The translations under genes were made by a program, and so were the position numbers. The notes under the pieces are model-generated. The model saw nothing but the letters and a program-made list of their open reading frames with translations. It did not search any database and was not told the DNA's origin. Of a DNA stretch of 64,000 nucleotides, positions 1,249 through 64,000 are shown one piece after another (within the stretch, counting starts at the first letter, position 1; every line of letters starts with the position of its first letter). The DNA is from Eledone cirrhosa (Eukaryota): assembly GCA_964016885.1 (NCBI GenBank), contig OZ024746.1:84134001-84198000 (forward strand), read 5' to 3'.

Positions 1249-3597
1249 GCTAGTTTTATGGATGAGTGTATCAATTAATTTGAAATACATTTTGGGTATT
1301 CAAATATTCCGTATGAATTGCTTCATTATTTTAAGAATATATTTTTATTCCTTCTCTATTATTTGGATTTTGTTGTTATTTGGTTTGAGCTGGAGGAGAT
1401 TTTGATTTGGCACAATGGATAATTACTAATTTATCCATATATTAATGCTTTTGAAACGTAGAACCTCTTGAATACAGGAAAATAGCTGTGAACACAACTT
1501 ATGAAATTGGGTAAGATACCGCTACAAAGGGAAAAGGTGGCCAGCAGCCGCTACAGAGAATCTTTTATTTTGAAAGGAACCTACTTGTAAATTCTTTCTA
1601 CATCGTATTATCATTTCATTTTTTTTTTTTCAGTCTTTATTATTATAAATTAATTCTGAAATTCCATTGAAAGAATTTCCTGTTTTTTAAGGGAATATGA
1701 AAACCCCAAAACGAAAACCTCCATCTTTATTAATAAAATGAATAAAATGAATAAAGAATAGAAAAGAAAACTTTTTCTTTTCTTTATTGTATTATTAAAT
1801 TTGGGTGTGACTTGATTTTTATTGGTGGCTCTTTTTGTATTTATGTATTCTGAAGAATGCCCTGAATTATAATATATTCCTGACAAGTGTCCACCCTGTC
1901 TTTTTTCACTTTGATATCACATGGCTCCTTTCATTCATTATTGAATCATACGGTCACTGTGGTGATTAATACGGTGTGTCTGAGCATGAAAACCTGGTAG
2001 AGCCAATCCTTCTGAAGGTTTGAACACAGCCGATTTCTTCCAGAGGAGAATTGAATCCAGCACTGGTACTTTTTTTTTATGAACTTCAACAGGATAAAAG
2101 GCAAAGTTGACCTCGTTGGGATCTGAGCCCAGAGCACAGAAAGTGGGAACAAATACCGTAAAGCATTCTAACAACTCTGCCAATTCGCCGTCTATCTTTT
2201 CCTGTATTATATATTTTACATCTGGGGTTTGTAATTTATTAGCACAGCTTGTCAATTAAGTTCACCCTTTACTCTATAAATCTATGAGGACAGATCTATA
2301 AGGAGAGTGAGTATTCCGGTTGAAAGTTCTCAGTTCCATAGTGTTGTAATCTAGGCTGCTATGTGATAATGATAGAAATCAATACTTGTGGATGAAGGAA
2401 TAACTGAGTTTTTAAGGAGTTCGCTCCCCAATCATGAGGGCCTGGATTCGATCCCACAGCATGATAGCTTGGATATCTTTAACCAAATCATTGGGTTGTC
2501 TGCGAAATTGGGTAGACAGAAACAACTACAACTCATTTTTCAAATAAAGAGTCTTGCTCAAGGAGATAATGCACAACAAGGAATTGAATTTATGGCTTAC
2601 GATCGTGATCTGACTTGTTGTGTTCCAGAGAAAGATACTCTATTTCTCATTGTTCCAATTCATTCAACCGGGGAAAATGAGTTGCCATGACAGTGTGGCC
2701 AAGCGTAACCAGCCTTTACCTTTTCCTTGGTCATTAGATAAGTTATACCTGCAATTCAAAGACCTAACCATGTCACATATTTTGTAAAGTTGATACTGAT
2801 AGGGAATTAAGAGTACATTTGTCTGTAGAATATTCAGACACGTAGGCATTAATATATACGAGTCGAGAGTTCAGTTGATCGGTTAACTACCAGTAATATA
2901 TATATAATATTTTAGTCAACTAAACATTTACTTTAAAAACATATTTGGATAAAAGACCTTGAGCAAGTTTATTAATATCTGATATATGGAATGGGAAGGA
3001 ATGGACCTCCATAGATTCCAATGATGTGTGTTCCAGTATACTATTATTGTAATATATAAAAGGAAAAAAATTACTATTAAATCAATCACACACACACATG
3101 TACACCAGTTATTCGATCAATGGAACGGTTTGCTGATAACTGATGTGTTTGGAGTATACAATATTCATAGTTTTTTTATGTGTAAAAAAAAGAACAAATT
3201 ACAGTTAGTCACATAGCTGTACCGCTGTACAAAATTCCAATTACTCGAGTGTAAAACTGCAGCTGTCACACATATCACACACATATAGAAACTCACTCTT
3301 ATCAACCAAAATAATACACCACGTATGTTTATATATTAATATATCACCATCAGTAACTTTTTAGAATCTACGCAAACACATACACATGTATATAATGCAT
3401 TTCCTATATCAGTGGACTGGTGCAGTGTGAAATAAAGTATCTTTCTGAAGGACACAACTTAAGCCTGTAGCGGATAAGTGGTATTCTTTGTATGGTAGTT
3501 TGATGAAAAGTATGCCATGATTGAGTTGTTAACAACATTTATTTATTAATAACAATATTCCCTTTGCACATCGAGTAATATTATTTATGACATGAAA

Positions 3598-3785
3598 GGG
3601 CGGTGGATTGGCAGTATCGGTAGAGAGTCGGACGCCATGCTTTCCAGCATAGTTACGTCCCTTTACGATCTGAGTTCAAATCCTGCCGAGGTTGACTTTG
3701 CCTTTCATCCTTACGGAGTCGATAAAATAAAGTACCAGTAATGCACTGGGTAATTGCTGGCCTTGTGTCTAAAGTAGAAACAATT
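3598..3785 (+). mobile_element. tRNA-derived SINE, dominant family (about 20 copies in the window)
   Basis: A box TGGCAGTATCGG, B box GAGTTCAAATCC, central GACTTTGCCTTTCATCCTTACGGGGTCGATAAAATAAAGTACCAG, tail GGCCTTGTGCCTAAAGTAGAAAC. Other copies near 2060(-), 4650(-), 6065(-), 19935(-), 23385(-), 27410, 32208, 34805, 36008(-), 37615, 49803(-), 54580, 56195, 56395, 57936, 58915, 62476, 63737. Confidence 0.9.
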
Positions 3786-3960
3786 ATTTATGACCTGAAA
3801 TATCCATACATTAAATTGTTAGCTGCTACGAGCTAATGTGAATGCATGTATCAGAGAAGACGATGATGTAAAAGTTGTGTTGTGTCTAGCAGATACAATA
3901 TGACAGGAAGAATAGGATGAACGTAAAATGTAAACAATATGAACTTACTATGTGTGTGTG

Positions 3961-4294
3961 TGTACCTACTCTTAGAATATGTTATTCTTCTCAAGGATAC
4001 TACTTCATGTCTGGCTGGTCGGTAAGGTAGAAGCCAGTAAGGGCCAGGAGAAAGATAGAGGGAAAGGTCTGCATCACTATTGCTCGCTGACTGCTGCTTC
4101 GAGTCTGTCCTTTGGGTTCTTTAACTCCTTGTATTTATAATAAGTGCTAAAGTTGGAAGGATGGATATATGAGGTTAATTTATTATCAGCCATGTGGTGT
4201 TATTGTCTCCCCAACGATAGATAGTCCCAGAGGCGAGAAAGCTCAGATTCGGTTTCGAATCTTCGCCGGTAAAACGTAGGAGTATTCCGTTATA
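3961..4294 (-). mobile_element. Probable solo LTR (related copy at about 41317-41540, +)
   Basis: Termini TGTACCTACTC...GAGTATTCCGTTATA. TATAAATA on the minus strand. About 70 bp shared with 41320-41392, which begins TGTACCGGAATACTC. Confidence 0.6.
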
Positions 4295-5647
4295 AGCTCT
4301 TAATCGCAAGGTAGTGAGTTCAATTACAAGTGGTGTATTATGTTCTTGAGCAAGACAATATTTCATGTTTCTCCAGTAAACTCAGCTGGCATAAATGAGT
4401 TGTATTTGTAATTCAAAAGGCCAGTCTTGTTACATATTGTGTCAGGCTGAATTTCTCAGACGGGTTTTAAGTGTTTACCTGTCAGCAGAATACTCAATCA
4501 CTTGCACATTAATTTCACGAGCAGGCTATTACGAACAATAGGAACACTCGTCATTGCAACCAACAGATGTCCACACTAACCTATTTAATGCAGAAAGCAT
4601 TTATAACCCTAACTAAAAATGATTGTGCGGTGGGATCTGATCAGTTCATAATTGTTTCTACTTTAGGCACAAGGCCAGCAATTACCCAGTACATTACTGG
4701 TACTTTATTTTATCGACCACGTAAGGATGAAAGGCAAAGTTAACCTCGGCGGGATTTGAACTCAGACTGTAAAGGGACGTAATTATGCTGGAAAGCATGG
4801 TGTCACGATCGAAACATGTTTCAAATTATCACCCGTACTTGCCGAAAAAATTTAGAAATAATATTAGTCAATGATTGATATTGTTTTCTTCACCGCATAA
4901 TTATTTCTGATATTCAATTCTCCTGTCATTAAAACTTTCTAAACAGTAACTGAACTACTGTTTTTCATAAGTTATTTATATTGATAGTTATCAACAGCTA
5001 AGCTCAAGGCTAGTAGAATGACTGCTAATCGATTTTTAAAATTGGTACAGATGTTGAAGAATGCTTCACGATTTAATCAGCAAAACGAGTGTCAAATTCG
5101 TATAAAAATTAATTTCCTGACTTAATACAAAAACAGAAGTGTTTTTTAAAAAGCCAAGGAAAGATTTTAGAAAAGATATGATAAAAAAAGTATGTTAACA
5201 AGATACGCACGTCACAAACTCATATTTCCTACTTCTATAAAACGAAGAAGTACTATGTAAATTGAAAATCACCAGTGGCAACACAGTGTTGGTAAGTATG
5301 CAGGATATGTGACAAACTCCTTGCCAACTGAAGTTTTTAGTCAGTTTCGATTACTATTCGAGCTAAACGCATCACGGTGGTACGTTCTCAGCAGAATCTT
5401 GTATACACTTTTACATATGCACACGAATGTATACACACTATTAGATGGCCGTTGGCTCCCACGAGTTTCTTCGCCATTTGATGGGGCTCTGTTTTTCATC
5501 CTGCGCGGGCGGAGACCCCAAATCACTCCACACTCCTCATTAAGTAGGCTTGGACAGGTTGCCGGTTTAGTCACCGAGGACTCGACCGTGCAACAGGTTG
5601 TGCAGGGCCGCATGATACCAGTAGCATTAACAAGCGACCTAGCCAAA

Positions 5648-8120: not shown

Positions 8121-8164
<44 letters not shown>

Positions 8165-8169
<5 letters not shown>

Positions 8170-10215
8170 CGAGGAAACTGGGTTGTATGAATGTAACAAG
8201 GAATACATTGTTTGTGTGTATAATATTTAATTACCAATGGTAGATAGTATACTTGACATGTCAAAGATAGATGTTAGAATGAAATAAAGTTAGTAGTTAC
8301 CGTTTTGATAGCCAGGCAAACGCGGCTGGCAGAGGACGCCTGTTGGCCAAATTAATGGCAGAGCCAAATGAGAGGCTCTTGACCTGGTGCCGAAAAGGCA
8401 AAGAGAGTTAGAAAGCTTAAAGTTGTTAGTTTTATAGGGCTCTGACCGGAAGTTGCAGAAAGGGTTCTACTTCCCAATCAAAACAAGGGAGACAACCGCT
8501 ACATAACCTCCCGCCAGAATTTTAGTGTATAAAAATCGAAATGAAAATATGTAGCAAGTTGGCGAGAATGTTGTAACAGGCATGAAAATTACGACAAAAG
8601 AATGTTTGGAAAAATCAATGATAGATATCAAGGTAGTCAACCGCTCTTGGCCAGAGAACGACTGGACATCCATCTATCCATCACCCAAAGATACAATGTA
8701 ATAAAGTAAAAGTAATAGAAGAGCTCAAAGTTCAAATGTACAAAATATAGTTCACAGGTGTGCAATCACATGACAGCAGGAAAGAAAGTGTGTTCCAGAG
8801 AATGAATGCAGGTGGTCTCTGTGCTGTGGTATATCGTGAAATTTCCAACCTCCGAATGGATTTTCTCACAGGGAGAGTGCTGCAAAAATAAATTCTCTGG
8901 CGTTCTGCTGGTTGTTGGTGAAGCTGTGTTGATGTATTGCTGCTGCTGCTGTTGTCTCGCTGAGTGGGCGTATTCGGTGTTTAAATTCACAGTAAAAAAA
9001 AAAAATCTTTTTTTTTTTTTAGAAAAAATGAGTTGCGCAAAGTGCTAGAAATAGCAGCCGAAGTTGATGGTCGATGTTGAGAATGCGTTGACCTGGAAGG
9101 GTCAAGAGGCCAGCGACCAGAGAAATAAGCATTCTTAATAAATGCGCGGTTATCAACGGTAAATTTACATTGTAAATTTATAAACCGGCAAATAGAAGAA
9201 TATAGCTTAAGGCTGAAGAATCCCTGGTGAGAAATGTTATCTCTGGCGTGCGGCTGTCTGTGAGTAGAGACATCTCTGTGAATCGAGAATTTGTGCTGCC
9301 TACACGTGCCAATACAAGGTTGAAAAAAATAATATTTCTAACGCGCGAGAAAATGATAGTGCAATTTTGAAAGTGACAATGATGAAAAAGAAAGGCTTCA
9401 CTCAGCATAATTATTGGTGTGAACTTTGGGAAAAAAAAAAAAAAAAAAAACTTGAACGATGAAGAAAACGATGAACAAAAAGGCAATGGTTCATCGAAAA
9501 TAAATGTTCCTGTTGAAATGTTTTTTTAAAGAATATCAAATTTCTTATTTTTTTTTTTGTGTGTGTTTTGAAAGAGTTCGTTGTAAGAAACGAGAAACAT
9601 GTATATATATCGTGAAATGCGACAGTTAGTTGATGCGTGAGAGAAAAAAGTCTGTCTGAACGCGAATTCCACATGTGCGTGTGTGCGTTTGTTTCTTTTA
9701 CTGAGTATTTTCATAGTTTGTCGATAAATTTACTGTGTATTCGTAATGTTACTCACACGAAACCAGATGTGCTATTTTTTTCTTTTTTTGGGGTGACCAC
9801 TTATAGCGATGAACGGCTGCGTGTTCGTATCACATCAGGGTTACCAATATAGCGAGGTTACTGGGTTGTATGAATGTAACAAGGAATACATTGTTTGTGT
9901 GTATAATATTTAATTAACAATGGTAGATAGTATACTTGACATGTCAAAGATAGATGTTAGAATGAAACAAAGTTAGTAGTTACCGTTTTGATTGCCAGGC
10001 AAACGCGGCTGGCAGAGGACGCCTGGCTAAGGCCAGGCGCCTGTTGGCCAAATTAATGGCAGAGCCAAATGAGAGGCTCTTGACCTGGTGCCGAAAAGGC
10101 AAAGAGAGTTAGAAAGCTTAAAGTTGTTAGTTTTATAGGGCTCTGACCGGAAGTTGCAGAAAGGGTTCTACTTCCCGTCTAGATCCCAATCAAAACAAGG
10201 GAGACAACCGCTACA
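8165..10215 (-). mobile_element. Non-autonomous or internally deleted Gypsy-type LTR retrotransposon (tRNA-Trp PBS, CsRn1-clade-like)
   Basis: Near-identical direct repeats at 8165-8503 and 9848-10215. PBS TGGTAACCCTGATGTGAT on the minus strand next to the right LTR. Purine tract GGCGGGAGGTTA (minus) next to the left LTR. Decayed gag-like start MSLLTDSRTPEITFL near 9273. TATA flanks are consistent with a 4-bp TSD. No pol in the 1.35-kb interior. Confidence 0.88.
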
Positions 10216-10441
10216 TATATAGTAATAATAATAAATTTGAAAACTAAAATCCAAAGAGGGCTCGATAAGGATAAATATATATCAAATATATAAGAACCGT
10301 AGAGCAAATATTTATTAAATATATATATATATACACGTATATATATTCTTTGCTTAAACTTTAATCTGTTATTTTAATAAATATATATATATATATAAAT
10401 CTTAACCATTTAACATCTCAGGGTATGTCATGTATCATTAT

Positions 10442-21960: not shown

Positions 21961-22250
21961 TAGGAAATTACAAGTACAATCCATTAATGGAACAGTAAAA
22001 ATATGTAAAACATTCCAAACATTTTGCATCTATCTAATAACTGCTTATACACATGTACAGATGCAAAGCATATACACATGCACACATACAACTCAAAACA
22101 TCCACATCCACACATACAATAACATCCATATCTACACATGCATGCATACATAATCTACCTAATTGATTCCAATGAGAGAGTCTTGTGTCTATGTTAGAAA
22201 CCGACTCTCTCTTTTTGGGAAAAAAAAAAAATTGTGAAATTATAAAACCA
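21961..22250 (+). mobile_element. R4/Dong 3' fragment in (TACA)n
   Basis: RKLQVQSINGTVKICKTF plus the same 3' UTR. (CATA)n on both sides. Confidence 0.8.
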
Positions 22251-22262
22251 TACATACATACA

Positions 22263-22296
<34 letters not shown>

Positions 22297-22394
22297 ACAT
22301 ACATAAATAACTTATTTTCTGAGTGAGCTTCCTACATAGAAATTTATTTCCTCGGCGTTTAGTAAGTTCGAAAATACGAGCATCGTATACGACG

Positions 22395-26886: not shown

Positions 26887-28176
26887 TCTAGAAACAGAGC
26901 CATTTTATTGCTACGAATTTTATTTCTGTTGATATATTTTTGTTTTCTTACTTTATCTGTGATCACCATTTAATTTGTCTTTAAGAAAAGAGAACAAACT
27001 CTGAGTTGAACCATTTCTGTTCTTTACTGCATTCAGTACAATATCCACCACAATTTAATTTTGCTACCTTTCCCCTACTTCAACCCTCTTTACCCCTATT
27101 TATCCCACTTTCAATGTCTTCTCTCCCTTCTTTATTTTCCTACCCTTCTTCATCTTCCTCCAGTTCCTTCTTTTTTCACCCTCTTTCCGCCTCTATCTTT
27201 ATCCCTATTTATCCCCGGTTTGGATGTTTGCAATGGGGTGGGCATTGTTAAGTGTAACCAAAAACAACAGATTAAATCTCCCATCCAAAAGTAATTAAAT
27301 CCATCCAGTGAGCCTCTGTATAGTTTCCATCTCCCATGTTTTGCTTATAGGGGTTTGGTCGACTCGCAGTCGCGGTCGTGGTATTTGTTTTGGTTCTTTA
27401 CGAATCAAATCCCGCTGAAGTCAACTTTGTTTTTCATCTCTCCAGGGAGCGATAAAATAAAGTTCCAATCAAATACTGGGGTTGATTTATTCAACTTTGC
27501 TATTTACCCAAAATTTACTAAGCTTGTGCTTAAATTTAGAAATCAATATTTTATATGGCTACGTGAATAAGGTTTTACAAGAACATTCTCAGCAACAAAA
27601 TTCAACTACACCCTCCCGGAACCAACGCAAACAATCTAGATTTGAGAAAACATAGCTGGCAAAATTCTTAAATAATAAAAAAAATACACCTTACCGTTTA
27701 GTTCTTCAGCCAGACCGATTGGCAACTAGATAACAACAACGAAAGCAGCAACACCCAGACTAGAATGGTGAGAGAGAAATGTTTCCGCAAACAGAATGGA
27801 ATAAAGTGTTTCAAACTTTGGTGATGGTAGTGATAATGATGATGATGATGATGATGATGATGAAACTGATGGTGAGGATGGTGATGATGTTGATGATGGT
27901 GAGGATAATGATGATGAAACTGGTGGTGAGGATGTTGATGATGGTGATGATGATGATGATGAAACTGATGGTGAGGATGGTGATGATGTTGATGATGATC
28001 TGTTTGTAATGAGGGTGGTGGAGGGAACAACGAGAACGATAGCGCTATATTGTTAATAGACGTGTTGTTGTTAATCTATGCAATGGTGGTGGTAGGAATT
28101 GTTGACGGGGGGCGGGGGATGGCTGATAATAGTGGATGTTTGTGCCAGGGCTAGTCGTTAGTAAAGTAAGATTAAG

Positions 28177-30096
28177 GTGTGGCTGAAAGTGAATAAGCAA
28201 CTGAAATGGATATCGACTCTCGACAACAACACCACGGAATCCACCACACCCAGATTCCCGATATACCAACTAGATCGCCCACTCTATCCACCGCCCGCCA
28301 ACCGCGAGCTGGAAGAAAAACTCTCGAGACTAAAACATTCCGTATTTAACATCTTACGGAAACAGAAGAAGTTGGCCCCTAACCTCTCCAGGACACAACA
28401 ACTCGCCCTGAAGAACCTACGGAATAAGGAACTTATTTACTTACCATCCGACAAAGGTAAAGAGTTCTGCGTCATCTCTCAAGCCACATACAATAACCTA
28501 GCCTTCGAACACCTAAGCGACAGTGAACTGTACACAGTGATCCCGGACATGACCGCAGCCCAAATCGAAAAACAGACCAACTCCATTTGGTTCGATATCT
28601 GTAGGAGAAGACAACTCCCGAATAAAATTAAACTCAACTACACCACTAGAAATAGCAGACTGCCCACTTTCTACCACCTCATCAAGACCCACAAGAATAG
28701 CACTAAGACGCATATAAGATCCATCGTTTCTAGCATAGAAGGACCCCTATACAAAATTTCCTGGCTTCTCTCCCAGGTCCTCAAGCCTCTACTCTCCACC
28801 TTCCCCGGGCATGTCAGTAGCTCCGACGAAGTTATACGTAGATTACACCAACTCCAGCCAGAACAACTTAAACTTAATAAATACGCTTTTAGCCTCGACG
28901 TTGTCTCCCTCTACACTACAGTCCCCGCTCACCCAGCTGTCGATTTATTGACGGACTGCGTGGTCGCGGAGAACATCCACTGCTACGGCCTCCACCCGAC
29001 GGACATACACCAACTTTTGTCCTTCACAGTAGACAACACGTACTTCACCTTCCACCACCACACATACAGACAGACAACAGGATTACCCATGGGATCCAGC
29101 CTCTCTGGCCTGCTGGCCATCACTTACATGAACCAGCTAGAATGCCGAGCCCTCAACACCTGCCATTCCCATGCCTTCTTCACCCGATATGTAGATGACA
29201 TACTCATCCTTACATCATCCCGTGAGGAGGCAGAGAAAATATACACAACATTCTCCAGCATGGACGCCAGTATAAAGTTCAGCATAGAACACCCCGATGA
29301 CCGCGGATCCCTATCCCTACTGGACTTCCAACTCAGGGTAACAGAGGAAGGCAACATCCACACCTGCTTCTATAAAAAATCCGCCAGCAGGGACCTGTTC
29401 GTACATTTCAGATCGGCCCTCCCACTCGGTGCCAAGTTCGGATACATAAAGAACGAACTGGCACGTATCAAGAACAAATGCACCGACGCCAGAGACCGAG
29501 ACACACACACCACACATTTCCTGGAAGTACTCAAACTGAACGGATACACGACATCCACCACAAACCGTGCCAGAAAGAACAGAGGACACCACACCCGAGG
29601 CACTAACACTTGCTTCCTGAAGCTCCCACACTTCAGTGAAGAAACAACAACAGCCATCCGCAGAGCCATCAGACGAGAAGGTCTGGATATTCAACTGGCC
29701 CATTCGGGTCCTTCTTTGCGTGGACGGCTAGCTAAGAGACACTCCACCAGACATGACAACTGCTGCAGACTAGCCAACTGCCCCATCAACGACACAGACC
29801 TATGCCACCAGGCTTACGTAGTTTACAGACTAGAGTGTGACAAATGCAACAACTTCTACGTAGGTAGCACCACCAGACCACTCCACATAAGAATAAAAGA
29901 ACACCTCAATACTAACGCTTCCTCATTTAAGAAACACCTAGTTAAATGAAAAAACACTGATAAAAACATAACAGTTACGATAGAAACTAAGGAAAGAAAC
30001 CTCGGCAATCTTAGAATCAAGGAAGCACTCATTATAGATAGAACACATCCACCAATCAATAATAGACTAGAGCTCAACACCCAATTTATAACCTGA
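28177..30096 (+). CDS. Penelope-like element (Naiad-like) RT + C-terminal GIY-YIG endonuclease ORF, 5'-truncated, with an in-frame TGA at 29947-29949 (candidate Sec)
   Basis: PLE RT motifs PSDKG, FYHLIKTHK, SLDVVSLYT, GLPMGSSLS, RYVDD, LLDFQL. Linker CRLANCP. GIY-YIG motifs VVYRLECDKC...YVGSTTRPLHIRIKEH...KKH. The same frame continues past TGA for 48 codons (KNTDKNITVTIETKERNLGNLRIKEALIIDRTHPPINNRLELNTQFIT*) and carries the R..E...I....P..N endonuclease end. The GTG start is probably not the real start. Confidence 0.92.
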
Positions 30097-32207: not shown

Positions 32208-32392
32208 TGGCGGTGAATTGGCAGTATCGGTAGAGAGTCGGACATGCTTTCCAGCATAGTTACGTCCCTTTACGATTTGAGTTCAAATCCGGCCGAGGTT
32301 AACTTTGCCTTTCATCCTTACGGGGTCGATAAAATAAAGTACCAGTAATGTACTGGGTAATTGCTGGCCTTGTGCCTAAAATAGAAACAATT
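32208..32392 (+). mobile_element. tRNA-derived SINE (dominant family)
   Basis: Full-length match to the 3598 copy. Confidence 0.9.
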
Positions 32393-32964
32393 ATTTTTAT
32401 ATTCTTGGTAAAACCTGAATTCAAACGAATCAGCGAGGGAGCCTGTACGTGGTCTCTCGACTTGCTATAGAACAAATAGCTTTCCAATCTCACTTCTGCA
32501 TTTAAAAAGGAAAGAACACATAGATGATGTAAACCTAGACATTTCCCCTGACACTTTAAAAGGTGAGATAATTGCGGGTAGAATATTTTTTATCACAGGC
32601 GCCCTCAACTAAGATAAAATTGGAGCTAAGCAATAGATGACAGAATTTCAAGTTTACGTTTCATGGTCTCCTTACAATAGCCAACATGTAATTCTAGGTT
32701 TGATAATCTACATTTGATAAAACTTTCTTGGTTCAAACGTTATCCTACCAAAATATCAGTTGCAAGAACACTTGCTGATGTTGCTGGCACAAACAGTGTA
32801 AAGTAGAGTGGTCAGTATTCTGGTACAGCCCGTTTATAAAGGCGTTGAGCAGGTAATTTATTTGAGAACAGAAGCGCAATAAGTATTGAGCGTTAGGGGA
32901 CAAATGAATTGTTGGGATAACCGATAAGAATATTGACACACACACACACCCACACACACCCACA

Positions 32965-36960: not shown

Positions 36961-37774
36961 GACGATAAATGAAACAATTATGATTATCATTATTGGTGTT
37001 ATTGTGTTTCGATCTGTGCCTATATAACAACTGTTGCGATCCTGTAGTTAATAACTGTAGTCTTTTACTTTCCTTCTACAATTCCTTGTCTGTTTTTTTG
37101 TTCTCTATTCTCTATTCTCTATTCCACCCACCACACTTTCTATTTTGACTTCTCCCTTTCTACCCCCCCCCCCCCCTCCTCCCATCTCCCACTCCGTCTT
37201 CCTGTTCCGTGTTTTCATTTTCAGTTTCCCCTTCCTGCGTTTTACTTTTTCCACATCATTTTTATTTATATTTTTTTTTTTTTTCCCGCGGTATAAAGTG
37301 TATGAGAAAGACAGAAAGATAGGGTGGGTGAAAGATACAACAAAGAGAGAGAGAGAGAGAGAGGGTGGGTGGGTGAAAGAAAAGAAAGGAGAAGAGGGGG
37401 GGTGGGTGAAAGAAAAGAAAGGAGAAGAGGGGGGGGTTGGAGTGTTCCACATTAGAGTTGTCTTTCATTCAACTGTGCTTGTCGACAAGTATATAAATAG
37501 ATTTCTTTATTACAAGTATATAAATAGAGGAATATACACACATGCGCGTGTTCATTTTCATTCTGATGCCAACAACACTTGGTTATTTCTTAGTATCTAA
37601 GTATCTTAGTATCTAATCCCGCCGAGGTTGACTTTGCCTTTCATCCTTACGGGGTCGATAAAATAAAGTACCAGTAATGAACTGGGTGATTGCTGGCCTT
37701 GTGCCTAAAGTAGAAACAGTTATTTCTTAGTATCTATCTATCTATCTATCTATTCTTAGAAATCTATCTATCTA

Positions 37775-41920: not shown

Positions 41921-42079
41921 CATATATACTTAAATATACATATATATATACACATATATACATATACACACACATATATACACATATACATATATATATA
42001 TATACATATACAAACACATATACACATATATATATACACATACATATATATATAAATATACACATAAAAATGAATGTAT

Positions 42080-42142
<63 letters not shown>

Positions 42143-42189
42143 CATACACACACATATATATATATATAAATATGCACACACACACACAT

Positions 42190-42255
<66 letters not shown>

Positions 42256-42269
42256 ATACTTTGGGAGGG

Positions 42270-42849
42270 TCTTTATTTATTAAAATAACAGATTAAAGTT
42301 TAAGCAAAGAATCGCTGCTTTCACCCTTAACGGGATCTTCTGAAACTGACAAAGTCAATCTGTAAACGCAGAAGTGAATATTTCAAAAAACGTTGGAACC
42401 AGAGGAAGACAGGAAGACGATACTTTGGTTCGTGGAAACGTTCCCTGGCAAAGAACGGGAAAAAACGAATATAATACGTCATTATTTGGAGCGGTGAAAA
42501 ACAATTACACGTTTTATGGTATAAAAGAAGTCGTAGACTAATATTCTCTTAGGTGGTTCATAGAGACGTTCTCTGGCAATGAACGGAAAAAACGAAGATA
42601 ATACGTCAAATGTGGAGCGTGGAGAACAATTGTACGCAAAGACAAAACCACGTAAATGGAATAACTGAAGTCGTAGACTAAAATTCTAACTAGGAAACCG
42701 AATGATTCTCCGCTTCAGAGTTAAGAATAAAGTAAATAAAATACAGAGGTAATTGAAATTGAATAAATACATACACGCATCCAAATACGTACATACACAA
42801 GCATACGCGAAAACACTCGCCATAGGTATACAAATACACGCACATATAA

Positions 42850-42887
<38 letters not shown>

Positions 42888-43540
42888 ATACAAATAATTA
42901 AATAAACGTATATAAATAAATAAATACGTATATAACAAGCGCACACACATACCTACATGTAAATACACAAATGTTAGGAGACGTACGTCAACCAAAACAC
43001 GAAGTACACATATACACACACCCTACATACGTACGAACCCGCATACTCGCACAGACGCAAAATTCACGTATACACATAACCAAAAGCATATGTACCAGAA
43101 TATATAAAATATACGGCATAACATATACAATCAAATATACGTACGAGAAAGTATACGTACCTTCACAAAACATACAGGTAATATATACTTACCTATGCAA
43201 ATAAGTAATGGTATAAACATAACATATACTTAGCTACCACATCAAGATGTAAAATATCCGCATATAGATCGTACTATCCGTTAGGGTATAATGTGGGGCT
43301 GTAATACAGGAAAGTTTTGTGCAATTTATGTTTACAAGCCGAAATTTCCTCAGATTTTTTGTTTAAGATGTGGTCTGTGGCGTAGAGTATTTTCAGGGCC
43401 TCAGCGGCGCAGAGGTCACATGGTCTTTTATTTCCGTTATACGATCTAGCCCTAACTAGGATCTCCCAGTGTAACTTATATTGGATGTGGTTGTCTTTTA
43501 GACTCCAGATATAAGCTGAAGATACATTGTAGGTAGCTTT
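42270..43540 (-). mobile_element. 3' part of a second Penelope-like element (Hydra/Neptune-like endonuclease C-terminus; clade uncertain)
   Basis: 43274-43530 (-) encodes YIWSLK...WEIL....Y....CDLC..E..I....LNKKSE....CKH. Its 3' terminus TCTTTGCTTAAACTTTAATCTGTTATTTTAATA also occurs at about 10348, 33458 and 40342. Confidence 0.75.
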
Positions 43541-44203
43541 AACCCATCTTTTATTATTCAAAAAACTTCTTGCCAATAAACATTAACCCTTTGTGCGCCA
43601 TTCATCTAACTGTAGACCAACAAATACCAACTAAACGGAGCGTTGACAAGAACGATGGCGAATGAATCTTCGAGGTAAGCAATTTCCTCCCGAGCTGTTA
43701 GTTCACGCGGGATTCTCTGCTACACCTTTTCGTAATAATACCGGAGAACGTACTGCTTCCTCCAAAAGCCGTACAGAGCGGACATGTGCATCGGGTAGAT
43801 GGATCGGGTGCAAATCTACACCAGGCCTACGCGAGACTGCACCGAGAGGGATAGAGAGAAAGAGTAACTTAGTGGAAGGAGTGCGAATGAACTTCTGAGG
43901 TAAGTAGCCTACGCTTTACTGCTATGGCACTGGAACCTTCTGCCAACTTAACCTGTGACTTTCTCTTTCACATTTACTCCAAAAGTCCCAAACAGAGGAG
44001 TATGAAAAGAAGGGGCTGAACAATGCACGTAGACAGCTAAACTGTACTTTTAACTTCTTATTTTCTCCAAATAAAACAAGTTTCCTGTCGGTATATTTTC
44101 GTGAGTTTTTAACAAATAAACGTTTCTCATTGGAGGTGCTATTACAAATTTTCTTACCCGGATATACCCGGATATACCCGGATATACCCGGATATAATGC
44201 TAG

Positions 44204-44330
44204 TTATAAATACAAGGAGTTGGGGTATTCAGTAGACATAGTGAGAACACAGGCGAGAGAAGAAGGTTCTACTAACGCTGTGAAATTTCTCTTCACAAAA
44301 AACCATTCATACCAGCCTGACAAATCGACA
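44204..44330 (+). promoter_or_regulatory. LTR-like fragment with a TATA box about 335 bp upstream of the IL17R-like ATG
   Basis: TTATAAATACAAGGAGTT is identical to 4123-4140 (reverse complement) within the solo LTR. Downstream CCAGCCTGACA resembles that LTR's CCAGCCAGACA. Confidence 0.4.
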
Positions 44331-44403
<73 letters not shown>

Positions 44404-44407
44404 TTAT

Positions 44408-44458
<51 letters not shown>

Positions 44459-44541
44459 GGAAATAACGGATATTAAGAATACACACACACTCAGATAGTA
44501 TCAAGGCCGCAATCTCGACCAAACGTGTCTTAGACGTCAAC

Positions 44542-45717
44542 ATGGAAAGTAGTTTTATAACAACACTCATTTTCACTGGTCTGCTTTCTTCGAGCTTCCT
44601 CGAGATGCTAGCCTCACCCACTTGTAGGATCGCTACATATATTGAACCTTACTATTTATATAATACACCATGTTGCAACGCTGATTTGGAGGTCTTCAAA
44701 CCTTTTTCTCATGGGAAGTTCCCAGCAAAACCAAACACTTTTAATGTAACAAATTTCCTGCACAACCATTTAAAGGGGTTAAAAGTTTCATGGAATGCAG
44801 ATGTAACCCATTTAAAAGGATTCAAAATAGTTTTTGAGTATATTAATAACTATTATCCGAACATATGTAGAGTTTTGGACTATTCTAAATTTCTGATGCA
44901 AAACAGATCCATTAGTAATCTTGAATTCCAGTTTGAATTATATCCACTAAGAAAACATTACAAATATTTAGTTCATCTCTATCCATTGCCTGAATCTAAT
45001 AACAATTATGTCTCTGTTGAGCCAGTTGATACAATCTTATGCCGTAAATGGACAACTAGGATATACCATAGAATGGAAGTGGATCAATTACATGTAGAAT
45101 TTCTACAAGGGCCTGCAAAATGTAATATACCAAGTTATACTTTAGTACTATATGATGGAAATTCCAAATTTGTAAAGGAAGTATCTCTAAATTCTTCACA
45201 CACAACCCCAAGATTAACCTATATATTTCATGGTATATGCCCTGGAATATATGCATTAACTGTTGAAATATTTGAGAAAACTCCCTTTAGTAATTGTATA
45301 TGTGTGGACGAGCAAAACAACTGTGGCCGTCAGTGTTTTCGATCCCTAACTGAAAAATTTACAATCACGGGTCCACCCTGTACAACTTATCCACTACAAA
45401 TGGTGACCCCCCACATAATGGTGAACAGGACGCTTGCAAATCCTATTCTTCATAGCATTAGAAAACTTCACGACTCATCGATGTCTCTAACGTCCGACGT
45501 GACCGACACAAGCAAAACAAAACATATACCAAACTTCGATTCTACAAAAGATTTACTGCGACTTCGCTTCGATGTTCTTCAATTCAGTTCCAAACACTTC
45601 ACTGCGAAAATGCTACACACCCGAGAAATCACTTCGTCAACGTCTTCGACAGCAGCAGCAACAACAACGACAACAGACAACTCTACTAGTTTCCTAGCAA
45701 GAAACGATAACATTTAA
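44542..45717 (+). CDS. IL-17 receptor-like (IL17RD/ILCR-1 type) ectodomain protein, single exon, signal peptide, no TM or SEFIR domain
   Basis: 391 aa from ATG to TAA. Hydrophobic N-terminus (MESSFITTLIFTGLLSSSFLEMLAS). FnIII/Ig-like motifs recalled from invertebrate IL17Rs: LKVSW...LKGF...CRVLD...Y.V...PLP; C..W...VEF...P..C....Y.L.L; F....PG.Y...V; C.C......C...C....T..F. S/T-rich tail, several N-x-S/T sites, AATAAA near 45752. Family call is by motif recognition only. Confidence 0.7.
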   Translation: MESSFITTLIFTGLLSSSFLEMLASPTCRIATYIEPYYLYNTPCCNADLEVFKPFSHGKFPAKPNTFNVTNFLHNHLKGLKVSWNADVTHLKGFKIVFEYINNYYPNICRVLDYSKFLMQNRSISNLEFQFELYPLRKHYKYLVHLYPLPESNNNYVSVEPVDTILCRKWTTRIYHRMEVDQLHVEFLQGPAKCNIPSYTLVLYDGNSKFVKEVSLNSSHTTPRLTYIFHGICPGIYALTVEIFEKTPFSNCICVDEQNNCGRQCFRSLTEKFTITGPPCTTYPLQMVTPHIMVNRTLANPILHSIRKLHDSSMSLTSDVTDTSKTKHIPNFDSTKDLLRLRFDVLQFSSKHFTAKMLHTREITSSTSSTAAATTTTTDNSTSFLARNDNI

Positions 45718-46658
45718 AAGAAATTTAAAAGAAAAAGGAACGCAGACACTCAATAAAAAGAAAAACTGAACTTTTTGTTAAAAACAATTATTTCTTTCAT
45801 TTTACAGGTTATATTTGAACGTTCATTTTTTTTTTACTGTATTATATGCCTGCATGCACACATTTTAAAAAACTGTATTATATGCCTGCATGCACACACA
45901 CATTTCTTTGTTACCCACCAACATGTTGTTATCTATAGTGTATGTTCTTGATTCGTGTAGGGATTCTGCGAAATCACTTTTCACATGTTTTTGATTCGTG
46001 TGAGGATACTGCAAGATCACTTTTCACCTGGTTGAGGTACGGAAACATGCTATCGATATATGAAGCTCGACTCGCCTGGACTCACTGAGGACGCAACGCG
46101 AGATTGCTCAACTCACCTGGATTCACACAGGCTCGCATCTCATTGTACACACTCATCTTCATATAGCATAAACCTCAATCCAGCCACGGCTTCCTCGACT
46201 CACTGGGAAAGCATTCATTTGACAGGCTCTGCCAACAGTTCCCACCGTTTCTCCAACGGTCTCGCCAACAACTTCCCCGACTCACTGCGAAATATCATAC
46301 GAATTACACATCGAGAGCGACCCCGCACGTCAAGCCATACCTATTTTAACTTCACGCAGTAGGTTTACTTATATTTTCACTAATCTTTCGTCTTCCTGTT
46401 ATTTCACGTCTATTATATAGTTGTATTGATACAAACATACACGCTAGCTCGAAGTAGCTAGCCAGAAAATAATGTAGTGATAACTGCTGCCAAAAGTTTA
46501 TTACTTGATGTTCAACGTACCAACAAGCGAATATTGTTATTGTAAAATAAACATTGTCAACATCACATTTCTGGCATTATTCTTTTTTATCATTCATCCC
46601 GAAAAGGAATACATTTATTCACTACATATATATACCTTTATGTATCTGTTCACCGATA

Positions 46659-46721
<63 letters not shown>

Positions 46722-47070
46722 CACTCTATCTATCTGGTGTTTATCTGTTTACTTTTATCCTCTTGTTTGTCTATCTATCTGCGTTGGTGTTATTTTAGAG
46801 AAGATTAATGAGAATTAAGGTGTATAAATGTCAATATATCTACGCATGCATGCATAAACACACACACATACATACACATTTATACATACACACACGTACA
46901 AATATGCTTATAAAGTACGTGATATAATTACACAAATATTGTCATACACATTTTACATGTATGCTCACACATACACACATACATACGTACGTACGTACGT
47001 ACATACATACATACATACATACATACATACATACATACATACATACATACATACATACATACATACATAC

Positions 47071-47449
47071 ATGATGGTTGCCCCCTCGTTATCGAGTATG
47101 GCCATTGCACGATATACCATTATTAAAAGATATTAGTTAATTCTATCGTGCAATGCCTGTGCATGAAGATATTTTTTAAAGTGAAGAAAGACTGTGCACT
47201 GAGCCAATCCCACCCTCTGAGCGACAGTAGCTATAACCTGAAAAGAAGAAAAGATCAACATCATCGGTAACTACTGAGCCGCAGGTTTTATATGGGAGTT
47301 ATCCCAGTTTCCTGAGTTACCTTCTCCTAGACGAATGCCCTGACAAAGGCTAGGGGTCCTTCACTCCCAGTGGATTAACCGCGCGGTACATGTGTATATA
47401 CATATTTACACACTTTGGGATGACCGTTGACTCTTATGAGTTCTTCCGC
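47071..47449 (-). mobile_element. Related RTE-like non-autonomous element (another copy at 201-425, +)
   Basis: 47080-47300 matches the reverse complement of 201-425. Shares motifs with the 21364 family. (TATG)n tail. Confidence 0.55.
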
Positions 47450-47466
47450 CTACATACATACATACA

Positions 47467-47720
47467 TGTAAAACATTCCAAAAATGTTGCATCTAATAAC
47501 TGCATATAGACATGTACAGATACAAAACATATACACATGCACACATACAACTCAAAACATCCACATCCATACATACAATAACATCCATTTATACACATGC
47601 ATGCATACATATCTACCTAGTTGATGTTGTATAAATTCCAATGAGAGAGTCTTGTGTCTATGTTAGAAACCGACTCTCTCTCTATTGGCAAACATTTGTG
47701 AAATTATAAAACCAGAAGAA
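47467..47720 (+). mobile_element. R4/Dong 3' fragment in (TACA)n
   Basis: Same 3' UTR ending TATAAAACCAGAAGAA-CATACATA. Confidence 0.8.
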
Positions 47721-47764
47721 CATACATATGTAGATACATATAAACATATATATATACATACATA

Positions 47765-49632
<1,868 letters not shown>

Positions 49633-49802
49633 TGAAATAATTCTTTCTTTATTGGCCACAAGGTCATACATAGAGGGGACAACACAAAAAGACAGGGACA
49701 TGGGGGTTTACAAAAAAAAAAAAAAAATAACGAGTAAAATGTTAAATACAACACTAACAATAAACAATAATTTTCTAAGACTAAAATAATGGTTTCTGAA
49801 AT

Positions 49803-49986
49803 AATTGTTTCTACTTTTGGCACAAGGCCAGTAATTACCCCAGTACATTACTGGTACTTTATTTTATCGACCCCGTAAGGATGAAAGGCAAAGTGAACCT
49901 CGGCGGGATTTGAACTCAGACGGCAAAGGGACGTAACTATGCTGGAAAGCATGGCATCCGACTCTCTACCGATACTGCCAATCCGT
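49803..49986 (-). mobile_element. tRNA-derived SINE (dominant family)
   Basis: Reverse-complement match to the 3598 copy. Confidence 0.9.
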
Positions 49987-50068
49987 TTCTGAAATAATAA
50001 AACCAGAACATACATACATACATACATACATACATACATACATACATACATACATACATACATACATA

Positions 50069-50451
50069 CCTTCAGATTTATGCCTGTGATTATTGGGGCA
50101 CTGGGATATGTTAGAAACTGCCTCAATACAAATCTTGAGAAGCTGGGCTTCACAAAAAACAGAAAGAACACAACTAGTTAGGAAATTACAAGTACAATCC
50201 ATTAATGGAGCAGTAAAAATATGTAAAACATTCCAAAAATTCTGCATCTAATAACTACATATACAGATACAAAGCATATGTACATGCACACATACAATAA
50301 CATCCATACCTGCACACACATGCATGCAGAGATGCATACATATCTACCTAGTTGATGTTGTGTAAATGCCAATGAGAGAGTCTTGTATCTATGTTAGAGA
50401 CCGATTCTCTCTCTATTGGCAATAATTTGTGAAATTATAAAACCAGAAGAA
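50069..50451 (+). mobile_element. R4/Dong 3' fragment in (TACA)n
   Basis: PVIIGALGYV...KLQVQSINGAVKICKTF plus a 3' UTR ending TATAAAACCAGAAGAA. (CATA)n on both sides. Confidence 0.85.
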
Positions 50452-51020
50452 CATACATACATACATACATACGTACGTACATACATACGTACGTACATAC
50501 ATACGTACACACATACATACATACATACATACATACATACATACATACATACATACATACATACATACATACATACATACATACATACATACATACATAC
50601 ATAATATCTATGTATACGTGCTATTACGCTGTATGTTAAAGGCGGCAATTTGACAGAGTCGTTACGACAGCAGACGATGTTCGTCCAACTTTTCTTTTCA
50701 TTATTTCAAGATCGATAAATAAACTACCATTTCAGTGCATTGGTCGATAATTCCTGTATTTCTCTTCCTCGTTGTCTTTTTCGCTCTATTTCCCCCGCCC
50801 AATCTCTCTCTTTCGATTTTTCTTTCTATCTCTCACACACTCTTTCTCTATCCCTCTCACTCCCTAAAAGAAATAGGTTGTGGGCCTCCGAGGTTTTGCT
50901 CAAGCTATAGGCTCTCCAAGGTTTTGCTCAATATGTTACGACGGCACCCTTACGATTACATGCTGGTTGGGGGAATTCATCGCGAATGGATGTATATTAT
51001 CAAAGAGTTAAATAAAAGTT

Positions 51021-54579: not shown

Positions 54580-54765
54580 TGCTGTGGATTGGCAGTATCG
54601 GTAGAGGGTCGGACGCCACGCTTTCCAGCATAGTTACGTCCCTTTACGATCTGAGTTCAAATCCCGCCGAGGTTGACTTTGCCTTTCATCCTTACGGGGT
54701 CGATAAAATAAAGTACCAGTAATGCACTGGATAATTGCTGGCCTTGTGCCTAAAGTAGAAACAAT
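54580..54765 (+). mobile_element. tRNA-derived SINE (dominant family)
   Basis: Full-length match to the 3598 copy. Confidence 0.9.
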
Positions 54766-54805
54766 TATATACATACATACATACATACATACATACATAC
54801 ATACA

Positions 54806-56194: not shown

Positions 56195-56607
56195 TCGCGA
56201 ATTGGCAGTATCGGTAGAGGGTCGGACGTCATGCTTTGCAGCATAGAGTTACGGCCCTTTATGATCTGAGTTCAAATCCCGCCGAGATTAACTTTGCCTT
56301 TCATCTTTACGGGGTCGATAAAATAAAGCACCAGTAATGCACTGGGGTAATTGCTGGCCTTGTGCCGAAAGTAGAAACAATTAATTATTGTGTAGCGCTT
56401 TGGCAGAATCGGTAGAGTGTCGGACACCATGCTTCGTCGCATAGAGTTACGGCCCTTTACATTCTGAGTTAAAATCCCGCCGAGGTTAGCTTTGCCTTTT
56501 CTCCTTGCGGGGTCAATAAAATAAAGCACCAGTAACGTACTGGAGTCGATTTAATCGACTTTCCCCTCCCCACAAAATTGTTGGCCTTGTGCCTAAAATC
56601 AGAAACC
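56195..56607 (+). mobile_element. Two tandem SINE copies (short-tail and long-tail variants)
   Basis: Copies at 56195-56383 and 56395-56607. The second carries the extra GTCGATTTAATCGAC hairpin segment also seen at about 58088. Confidence 0.85.
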
Positions 56608-57888: not shown

Positions 57889-59522
57889 GAAGAACGTTCG
57901 AGTTTAATTCTTGGCACATATCGTTCGCATTCTACGGTGGATTCGCAGTATCGGTAGAGAGTCGAACACCATGCTTTGCAGCATTGAGTTACGGTCCTTT
58001 ACGGTCTGAGTTCAAATCCCGCCGAAGTTAACTTTGCCTTTCATCCTTACGGGGTCGATAAAATAAAGCACCAGTAACATACTGGGGTCGATTTAATCGA
58101 CTTTCCCCTTCCCCCAAATTTCTGGCCTTGTGCTTATACGAGAAATCATTCTATAAAATTGTCGCCTCTGATTATGCGTTTATGTAACCCCAACCGTGGT
58201 CCATTAACAGAGTAATATACAGGAAAAGAAACTCCACAAAGGGCTATAATGATTCTGCCACCCAACACCTTATAAATTCATATATAAGGTAAATACGAAG
58301 AGACACCATTTCAAGAATTAGAATGTTTACAAAACATGGATTAATGGAGGAGTGTAAGATAAAAGCCCCTTGAACAAAACCATTCCGACATAGGACATAA
58401 CTCACTCGGATGAAACTCGCCAGGGACAAATCCAATTTAGAACTACCATACCTCCAGGACAAAACACGCCACGGATAGATCCCCATGTTTATAATGAAGA
58501 GTAGAACACAATCCCAGTGGAAAAAAAATTAAATGCGTAATACTTCAAATTTTCGAAAAGAAAAATCATTAAAAAATTCGGTAATTAGTTTAATATTTTA
58601 ATTTAGTTGTTTTGTAGCCATGAAATGAAATCTTTCAACTACTCAGAATGTTCGTTAGTAGTGATTACTAACGTAACGTAATCTGATTACGTTATCTAGA
58701 TTTCGTAATCAGCAGTGGACATTGTACGTCTACAATAAGGAAGGTATTATAAGCATTGTATTGTAGTATACATTAATACTTTATAGCTCACTATTTTAGA
58801 GAACTAAACTAAATCAGTTACGCAATCATAAAATGGTAGGAGGTGAATGCTTTGCAGTATTCGTTCCGGTTCTCTGCGCTCTGATTGCCTATTTATTAAC
58901 GTATTGCTATGCTTAAAGGCAGCAAATTGGCAGTCTTCAGAACATCGGATAAAATGCTTTGCAGTATTTGCTAGGCTCTCTTCGTTCTGATTTCAAGTTT
59001 CAGCGATGTTAACTTTGTTTTTCATCCTTTCGGAGTCGATAAAATAGTACCAGTCAAGGTTTGGGTTCCATTCTTTCTCTGTCTCTTTCTCACTTTCTCT
59101 CAACCACTGTCTCTTCTTCTCTGGAAGAAATCGGCTGTGTTCAGACGAGGAGAAGGATGGGCTCTGCTAGGTTTAAAATTCCTGAGAGTTACTGTATATC
59201 ACGACGGCACTTCTACAACCCCATTAGAAGTTATGGGCACAATGCATATTTGAGATACATTTGAGATCTACGTATCTACAGTACTGTTTAGGAAAATATT
59301 TTTTTGCAACATCTCGCCATTTACTGTTAGAGGTGGACTAGAACGGCGTCTTAGACGCACATTGGGACTGTGTGAGAGTAGTTGATAGAAGTCGGGAGTA
59401 CAAAAGACTTCAGTTACTGCTCCAATTTAATAGTTTTATGACTTTGGTCAGTGTGTATACTCCAACACTTGTAAGACCCCCAAAAGAAATAGATACATTT
59501 TTACGCGGATCCAAGCATAATC

Positions 59523-59876
59523 TTGAAAAGTGTAAATAGAAATGTTTATATCACACTGATACGTGATATTCTTCACGCAGACGACTGTGATCTTGTTAGC
59601 CACACAGAAGAAGACCTTCAACTCCTGATGAATTGCTTCTCGGCAGCATGTGATGAGTTTGGGCTGACAATCAGCCTGAAAAAGACAGTGTTGATATACC
59701 AACATGCACTCGGAAAGCCATATATATATGTCAAAGAAAAAATACTGAGGGTTGTGGATAAGTTTGTCTACATGGGTCGTATTCTCTCCAACAGCAACAC
59801 CCTTAATGAAAAGGCAAGACACCGGCTGCGTAAAGCTTCCAATGCTTTTGGTGCGTGTGTGTATTGTTTCCTTTAA
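59523..59876 (+). pseudogene. RTE-clade LINE reverse transcriptase fragment
   Basis: IRDILHADDCDL..HTEEDLQLLMNCFSAACDEFGLTISLKKT..VVDKFVYMG..RLRKASNAFG (BovB/RTE-like). Confidence 0.88.
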
Positions 59877-62909: not shown

Positions 62910-64000
62910 ATGTGTGTGTGTGTGTGGGTGCATGAGTGTGTGTCTGTATGAGTGTGTATAGATGTGTCTATGTGAATGTGTGTGTTTATGCTTACACTGA
63001 TCCCAAAACAATGTTGTATTTGTTTTGTCTTGTGTCCCTTTATTACCGTATTTTTGCAGTTTAACATTCGGCAAATAGAAATCGATAAACTAAGAACCAA
63101 ACCACGGTCGATATGATCGACTACACTGTCAAAGGTGATCCGCAACATGTCCGCATTTCAAGTATTTATTTAAGAATTCATTTAAGTACATATTGCATAC
63201 TTTCATACTTGGTATGAGATTTTAGAGAGAAGTAAGTACGTGACAAAAGCTGCTCTGCTTCTGAGAATGTCATAAAAATCTTATGGTGTGATGGAAGGCT
63301 AAAGAAAAGAAACGAACATCTCAAATCACAGACATGAGTAATTTCATTGGAGTTTAGCCCGAGTTCCTGGTTAACTATGACACCACCTACAGTTGGGTAT
63401 ACTTAGCAATGTGCCATGACATGTCAGAAATGGCATTGTATAATAACTCACCCATCTGTATAGCTAACTATATTTATAATAAAAGCAATAAAGAAATTTA
63501 TAATAAAAGCGTATATTGATTCATGCAGAATACTTTTTACATATACTAAACATACATATAGTCTCGTTGGAAGTATATTAAACTCTGATTATATCACTGC
63601 TTCCTAGATACCGGCGAAAGAGTGTTGTATACATATATTTCAGAATCTTTGTTCATTATCAGTAGGTACTTGAAAGTCTTAAAGATATGTTTCACATAGT
63701 ACAGCGAGACTATACGTATGTTTATTATATATAAACATTCTGAGTTCAAATCCCGCCGAAGTTAACTTTGCCTTTCATCCTTACGGGGTCGATAAAATAA
63801 AGTACCAGTAATACACTGGTTAATTGCTGGCCTTGTGCATAAGTAGAAACAATTATATATAAACATATTGTATACGGGTCCCTATACGCCTTTATTATGA
63901 ATTACGCTCTGCTAGCGTTATCGCTAATTAATACTAACTAATAAAGCTTTCACTATATGTAAGTAAGCTTTCGTCAACATATATTCAACACTCCTCTACT

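Follow-up and report, generated by a model that had tools for sequence, protein, structure and literature searches.

A probable LTR-retrotransposon retrocopy of an octopod IL-17 receptor, truncated before the membrane anchor, in Eledone cirrhosa

The window analysed here is a 64-kb stretch (64,000 nt) of the Eledone cirrhosa genome, AT-rich and dense in microsatellites and SINEs. Its forward strand carries a single 1176-nt open reading frame (ORF; 44542-45717, +) encoding 391 amino acids, as a preliminary description of the sequence had stated. The start context includes A at -3 and G at +4. Residues ~1-24 (44542-44613, +) form a predicted signal peptide with an approximate cleavage site, as also proposed earlier; the prediction draws on a hydrophobic N-terminus, whose best 11-mer has a KD value of 2.14 against 2.29-2.96 in five full-length relatives, and on its co-alignment with the N-termini of relatives. 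The predicted product contains 12 cysteines and five N-glycosylation motifs. Past residue 250 the best 19-mer reaches a KD value of 0.61, compared with 2.64-2.98 in 5/5 relatives, and a check for a GPI signal found the C-terminus not hydrophobic (0.42). Hydropathy, Pfam, and tblastn and profile scans of the 64-kb window bear out the reported absence of a transmembrane (TM) helix, a GPI signal and a SEFIR domain. The architecture of a soluble decoy is present, by prediction: a signal peptide, intact ligand-binding domains and no anchor. A candidate polyA signal, AATAAA at 45752-45757 (+) followed by a T-rich stretch, does lie about 35 nt past the stop codon as described, but with 1.5 such hexamers per kb on the + strand it is weak evidence if taken alone. 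A strong acceptor-like site follows at 45784-45807 (+).

Residues 1-282 are the signal peptide and two FnIII domains of an octopod IL-17 receptor of the ILCR-1-like type. FnIII domain 1, with an N-terminal Cys segment (residues 25-165; 44614-45036, +), is delimited by AlphaFold2 and by Foldseek matches to IL-17RA/RB, and in relatives the same region scores PF16556, PF25519 or PF16742. FnIII domain 2 (Ig_ILCR1, residues 166-277; 45037-45372, +) matches Pfam PF23608 over residues 169-273 (E 1.4e-16, 61 bits against a cut-off of 27), and chance is ruled far out for the ectodomain. The AlphaFold2 model, built from 29 sequences, contains two FnIII-type beta-sandwiches and has pLDDT values that exceed 85 at most of residues 31-280, which, together with the 12 cysteines, confirms the two Cys-patterned modules noted earlier. 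Foldseek, one of the checks proposed for the IL-17R assignment, placed IL-17RA/RB ectodomains at ranks 1-11 (best E 5.6e-11), with whole-model TM-scores of 0.24-0.42, rmsd ~13 Å and 11-15% identity. VIA-align placed IL-17RB (Z 10.9) level with fibronectin; the fold alone therefore says only tandem FnIII. The Pfam domain, the octopod relatives and Foldseek all agree on the IL-17R homology first suggested.

A word search found four relatives among 1364 candidates, all from Octopus, and no identical protein in the collection searched, and searching 1.84 billion representatives with a profile yielded 51 matches. The Pfam scan set (n=34) consisted of 31 of these 51 matches and three earlier relatives, with 20 short multi-stretch matches left out; Ig_ILCR1 was present in 30/34 and SEFIR in 17/34 of its members (E <=0.01). 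A search for shorter relatives returned 0/105 candidates, a PDB sequence search with the ORF protein gave nothing significant, and an atlas search matched the ectodomain to generic FnIII only and the tail to nothing. Ectodomain identity to five cephalopod-like relatives is 55, 51, 52, 46 and 29%. In a 12-row tree the window protein falls outside six Octopus rows (support 83/98) and beside an Argonauta and a Logan sequence, with unresolved branching and a terminal branch of 0.42. The direct parent gene was absent from the databases searched, in which the best relatives are 51-55% identical. Some entries of invertebrate type consist of the ectodomain only (P0027, P0032, P0034, P0044 and P0045) and may be incomplete gene models. 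P0002 (O. bimaculoides XP_014779803.1), of 340 aa, has a TM helix and ends before SEFIR; it may be a membrane-anchored decoy or a faulty gene model.

The copy is 3'-truncated and cut just before the membrane anchor, and the suggestion that the receptor is truncated is thus supported. The receptor's 5' end is complete and its 3' half is missing: TM/SEFIR sequence was found nowhere in the 64-kb window by tblastn with five relatives and then ten more, nor with a profile of the five relatives' C-terminal halves in all six frames. Homology ends at residue 282, after the first five native stalk codons (45373-45387, +); this is where the local alignment to O. vulgaris P0011/P0066 stops, and with other relatives tblastn homology stops at 45381-45384. 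The breakpoint lies within a ~20-25-codon stalk of a ~560-codon gene, and this stalk is the only breakpoint zone that yields a whole ectodomain without the TM helix. There is no A tail at the receptor/LTR junction, and in this, as in its complete 5' end and missing 3' half, the copy departs from a LINE-type (TPRT) retrocopy, which keeps its 3' end with the polyA tail and is truncated 5'. A donor at about 45412 or 45421 had been named as an example of a site from which splicing to TM/SEFIR exons would speak against the soluble form. The site at 45421 stands and that at 45412 does not, the other candidate being 45403; both candidates are weak, each with 4/7 consensus positions.

The last part of the ORF had been described as an S/T-rich stalk. 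Ser and Thr make up 34/110 residues, in two patches, and the segment has no homology to the stalk, TM or SEFIR regions of relatives. It is not receptor sequence; it begins at an LTR end and a primer-binding site (PBS) and is read-through of LTR-retrotransposon sequence. The read-through tail (residues 283-391; 45388-45717, +) comprises the LTR end, the PBS and a CpG-rich element leader, and the CpG observed/expected ratio rises at the junction from 0.41 in the ectodomain (10 CpG/843 nt) to 1.41 (18/318 nt). AlphaFold2 predicts disorder over residues 310-391 (pLDDT <50), protein relatives of the tail numbered 0/83 candidates, and a frame open over 110 codons arose in 193/20000 dinucleotide shuffles. 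An attempt to read the tail as a decayed TM/SEFIR half was rejected: MAFFT set a few tail motifs on SEFIR, the profile score was only -1.5 bits, a value matched by 447/1000 shuffles, and pairwise scores were matched by 111-468/1000.

The LTR 3' terminus at 45381-45398 (+) matches the end of an independent family member in the window, referred to here as copy X, at 15/17 positions, and the LTR ending at 46626 at 15/18. The match to copy X has a probability of 3.6e-6 within 60 nt and 0.008 over the whole window, calculated after the LTR, PBS and TATA motifs of the locus had been spotted by eye. An LTR ending in ACA, two nucleotides and then a PBS is the standard layout of a 5' LTR. Two nucleotides past the LTR end, a tRNA-Trp PBS core at 45401-45410 (+) is exact at 10/10 positions against the tRNA-Trp 3' complement as printed in 10.1101/400127, and the eight nucleotides beyond this 10-nt core fail to match ungapped. 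Receptor homology, which on that side is at the protein level, runs to 45387, and LTR homology starts at 45381-45382; the resulting overlap of 6-7 nt is a putative template-switch microhomology.

Copy X (3466-4140, -), which served as the reference, is interrupted by a SINE at ~3599-3790 that has an apparent target-site duplication. Downstream of the ORF, the 3' portion of another LTR belonging to this family (46336-46626, +), a candidate 3' LTR, is ~70% identical to copy X over ~300 nt and ends at the same base, and 0/500 shuffles reach the score of either half. It contains an AATAAA at 46546, and TA repeats follow past 46626. Two other delimitations of this LTR were discarded: a 154-bp mini-LTR with 8-bp inverted ends (46473-46626), as homology to copy X continues upstream of 46473, and a full ~670-nt LTR from 45956, which is not significant against copy X (317/1000). 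A 43-nt tandem duplication lies at 45942-46027. No gag or pol was found in the element: the N-termini of P0011/P0005 as queries found no gag, and a Pfam scan of the 148 longest further ORFs among 173 that passed a complexity filter, two already scanned being excluded, returned one reverse transcriptase (RT) fragment only. With no gag/pol to draw on, the clade is assigned from the PBS, by which the element is probably a CsRN1-type Gypsy. CsRN1-like Gypsy elements have a tRNA-Trp PBS according to the accessible part of PMC2582038, and according to that of PMC6238403 this clade is common in cephalopods.

An intact, young, non-autonomous LTR element of a different family (8164-10217, -) acts as a positive control within the window for the same LTR-end/PBS layout. 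It has paired LTRs of 368 and 339 nt that differ by 5 substitutions in 339 columns and two indels, a tRNA-Trp PBS (15/18), a polypurine tract (PPT) and a 1.34-kb non-coding interior, and it sits in a TA microsatellite. Kinship between the ORF tail and this element was considered and dropped, as the scores lay within the shuffle range.

Upstream of the ORF, a TATA-box 18-mer and an initiator-like TCAGT (44229) together form a candidate LTR-derived core promoter (44204-44233, +). The 18-mer (44204-44221) has a single further match, exact over 18 nt, in copy X at 4123-4140 (-), with a generic chance of ~3e-5. Its flanks are not significant against copy X (171, 896 and 506 of 1000 shuffles), and the upstream region has no resemblance to the downstream LTR (98/500 and 433/1000 shuffles). 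The segment 44200-44541 lacks any ATG, and the putative leader holds an (ACT)n microsatellite (44331-44458, +). Consensus-like donors at 43675 and 43900 mean that a spliced leader is also possible. Further upstream lies a CpG-rich block (43611-44146, +; o/e 0.93) with two AATAAA hexamers and a purine tract at 44004-44015, which may be another element or a spliced leader. Rfam over 42000-48000 gave only microsatellite-driven matches below the gathering score.

The remainder of the window is rich in other mobile sequence. A SINE-like repeat of ~190 nt occurs in many copies that are ~90-96% identical (3599-3790, 4648-4804, 32209-32396, 37603-37725, 49799-49984, 54581-54771, 56198-56388 and 63739-63867). 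A 594-codon frame at 28165-29949 (+), with an RT domain (PF00078, E 1.7e-15) and a weak GIY-YIG match, is a Penelope-like element, apparently 5'-incomplete. A short LINE-type reverse transcriptase fragment lies at 59493-59873 (+; PF00078, E 7e-5), and degraded LINE-like pieces with internal repeats at 47400-50500 and also at 22003-22298.

That the ORF is a processed copy of a receptor mRNA, as the preliminary description had proposed in calling it retroposed, is supported by the paralogs, since the frame runs uninterrupted through the positions at which their introns appear to lie; at least four introns would have been lost. These positions were read from paralog proteins, not from parent or paralog DNA, and the splice sites are those we infer from that reading. 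The exon-sized Logan ORF P0012 is identical to P0002 at 44/55 positions over one block, CREW to NSSK. Before this block comes an F/P/T-rich stretch whose last residue is Ala, and after it Val-Cys; these flanks suggest a translated acceptor and a GTATGT donor. Two further exon-sized ORFs, P0013/P0067, cover LxHLKG to KSISN and continue with Val-Ser, which reads as a translated GTAAGT donor. The NCBI models P0008/P0057 and P0011/P0066 have foreign sequence joined independently at one CREW boundary, and the P0005 model stops at YEIS. The window ORF crosses all of these boundaries, at least four in number, without a break. Mussel IL-17 receptor genes have up to 11 exons, as given in the accessible part of PMC8353272.

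As separate observations on these paralogs, retrotransposon gag-like sequence, represented in P0011 by DUF7041, is fused to IL-17R exons in the O. vulgaris models P0011 (CAI9729979.1), P0066 (CAI9729980.1) and P0005 (CAI9729972.1). The closeness of the accessions CAI9729979.1, CAI9729980.1, CAI9729972.1 and CAI9729989.1 suggests a tandem IL-17R cluster invaded by LTR elements, and the O. bimaculoides loci LOC106875972 and LOC106875973 are likewise adjacent.

We consider it probable that the locus is a 3'-truncated retrocopy of an octopod IL-17 receptor made by a tRNA-Trp-primed LTR retrotransposon through template switching, a process already known. By this route, reverse transcriptase would have been primed at the PBS and have copied ~18 nt of the LTR end, then switched at ~6 nt of microhomology, within the stalk codons, to a co-packaged receptor mRNA. 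It would have copied that mRNA to its 5' end before returning to LTR sequence. Such a template switch would place the cDNA within the 5' LTR, downstream of that LTR's TATA box. An early minus-strand switch and then transfer of the plus strand to another, normal template would leave the downstream LTR without receptor sequence; alternatively, such a cDNA could have recombined into a resident element with the same result. Several points weigh against this origin. Intron loss and microhomology are both judged against paralog proteins, the parent gene not having been found. The upstream part of the LTR amounts to one 18-mer with non-significant flanks, unlike the downstream LTR, and the whole element yielded no convincing target-site duplication or PPT, and no gag/pol.

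An unlikely alternative history is that an older, full-length intronless IL-17R retrogene was broken by an LTR insertion and by deletion of its TM/SEFIR half and most of the 5' LTR, which would make the locus a recently disabled receptor gene. The long terminal branch (0.42) and the lack of a close parent would suit such an age, as would the 45/49 conserved columns kept, as in intact receptors, and deletions also use microhomology. The TATA 18-mer of the same LTR family upstream nonetheless sandwiches the cDNA between pieces of one LTR family, and no TM/SEFIR remnant lies past the downstream LTR. Less probable again is a normal membrane receptor whose ectodomain occupies a single large exon, with splicing from a donor at ~45403 or 45421 to TM and SEFIR exons that would lie over 18 kb further on, and with the tail as intron read-through. 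Octopus introns are long and repeat-rich, the window stops 18.3 kb past the stop codon, and both donors are in phase 0. Yet the donors reach 4/7 of the consensus and lie in the PBS/leader, paralogs apparently split the ectodomain into several exons, no TM/SEFIR exon is found within the 18 kb downstream, and the short tails obtained by splicing to three local acceptors have no receptor homology. The repeat-rich region could also have favoured an assembly chimera in which a receptor cDNA-like read was joined to a repeat. This we regard as very improbable, as the join falls exactly at the LTR-end/PBS boundary with putative microhomology, and genomic reads of an intron-containing gene would not yield intronless sequence.

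If the probable origin by LTR capture is accepted, a transcript from the LTR promoter would need no splicing, and its product would be a secreted D1-D2 ectodomain followed by a 109-aa disordered tail from element DNA. If expressed, this product would most probably capture IL-17 dimers but transmit no signal, and would thereby dampen the IL-17 response. In the solved human complexes among the Foldseek-matched structures, the ectodomain is sufficient for IL-17 binding. Human soluble IL-17RA, produced by skipping of exon 11, is discussed as a potential decoy in the accessible part of PMC13482007. Given the human ectodomain binding and this precedent, a ligand sink would be the likeliest activity if the locus is transcribed.

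Whether such a product is made and retained is a separate matter. We doubt that it is expressed and maintained by selection as a decoy, and think it more probable that the locus is a recent retrocopy without function. The role first proposed, as a secreted IL-17 decoy or carrier, would be compatible with the LTR-capture origin, and although we consider an established, selected gene of that kind unlikely, several features speak for it. There are 281 intact codons, 12 cysteines and 45/49 conserved columns, compared with 45/49, 42/49 and 45/56 in intact relatives. The breakpoint falls in the narrow stalk and leaves a whole ectodomain without the TM helix. TATA box, initiator, ATG-free leader, good start context and AATAAA follow one another in order, and the shuffles seldom left the tail open (just 193/20000). 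A neutral ORF would rarely survive if the 3/18 difference between the junction and the downstream LTR dates the insertion: with indels set at 10% of substitutions, simulated neutral decay left the ectodomain frame intact with P 0.43, 0.16, 0.014 and 0.0015 at 1, 2, 5 and 8% divergence. This date, however, derives from 18 nt (3 differences, 95% interval 4-41%) and is void if the two LTRs came from different templates. Against selection, the collections searched hold no identical or close protein, the locus was chosen for its long intact ORF, and young LTR retrocopies are usually in frame (14/17 in the accessible part of PMC5131818). A young retrocopy would look alike, so the 45/49 kept columns do not show selection.

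A bolder and rather unlikely reading is that of an immune gene made in one step, in which an LTR retrotransposon captured exactly the ligand-binding half of the receptor mRNA in its own 5' LTR and gave rise to a secreted IL-17 trap that is now under selection. The element would, on this account, have supplied the promoter, a mucin-like tail and the polyA site in an octopus lineage with expanded IL-17 ligands. O. bimaculoides has 31 IL-17 genes, as stated in the accessible part of PMC8353272. A separately encoded soluble receptor would be a directly testable negative regulator of such a ligand set. If true, retrotransposon capture, and not splicing or shedding, would have given rise to a decoy receptor, and the case would be a clean one; a silent locus would still exemplify LTR-mediated retroposition in a cephalopod, at an unusual capture site, though its interest would be modest. 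Neither a locus of this kind nor a soluble IL-17R from a cephalopod turned up in a literature search, with most subscription papers outside its scope.

The locus can be set beside five known systems. LTR-mediated retrocopies, as described in the accessible part of Tan et al. (2016, PMC5131818), are truncated more often at the 3' than at the 5' end, have a median microsimilarity of 6 bp, lack polyA tails and are co-transcribed with the LTR; the maize Bs1 and yeast Ty captures are examples cited there. The window copy agrees with those descriptions in being partial, 3'-truncated, intronless and without a polyA tail, with LTR DNA joined at a putative short microhomology, and it lies in sense orientation to the element, potentially driven by the element's promoter. 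In the retrocopies covered by the same text the mRNA replaces the internal ORF, whereas here it appears to stand in for a 5' LTR segment that precedes the PBS; the receptor is also absent from the downstream LTR. With CsRN1-clade Gypsy elements the locus shares a tRNA-Trp PBS right after an LTR ending in ACA, but the window element is non-autonomous and degenerate, with no gag/pol or CHCC motif by which to place it.

The octopod IL-17R-like proteins used as comparators are XP_014775896.1, XP_014779803.1 and XP_014779801.1 from O. bimaculoides, CAI9729989.1 from O. vulgaris, XP_029642937.1 from O. sinensis and GAB1607498.1 from Argonauta hians. They have the same signal peptide, two FnIII domains and Cys pattern, and ectodomain identity to the four octopod receptors compared is 46-55%. 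They have a TM helix, SEFIR in most cases and introns that apparently split the ectodomain, whereas the window copy is without TM, SEFIR and introns and has gained a transposon-derived tail. Because TM and SEFIR are absent, the window locus is not a member of the IL-17R family in the receptor sense. Human IL-17RA/IL-17RB structures (4hsa, 3jvf, 7uwm and 7uwk) share the tandem FnIII D1-D2 arrangement and differ in sequence, at 11-15% identity to the window protein. Human soluble IL-17RA, as presented in the accessible part of PMC13482007, is likewise an IL-17R ectodomain off the membrane and a proposed decoy, but it arises by alternative splicing of the receptor gene itself, whereas the window copy is a separate, retroposed locus.
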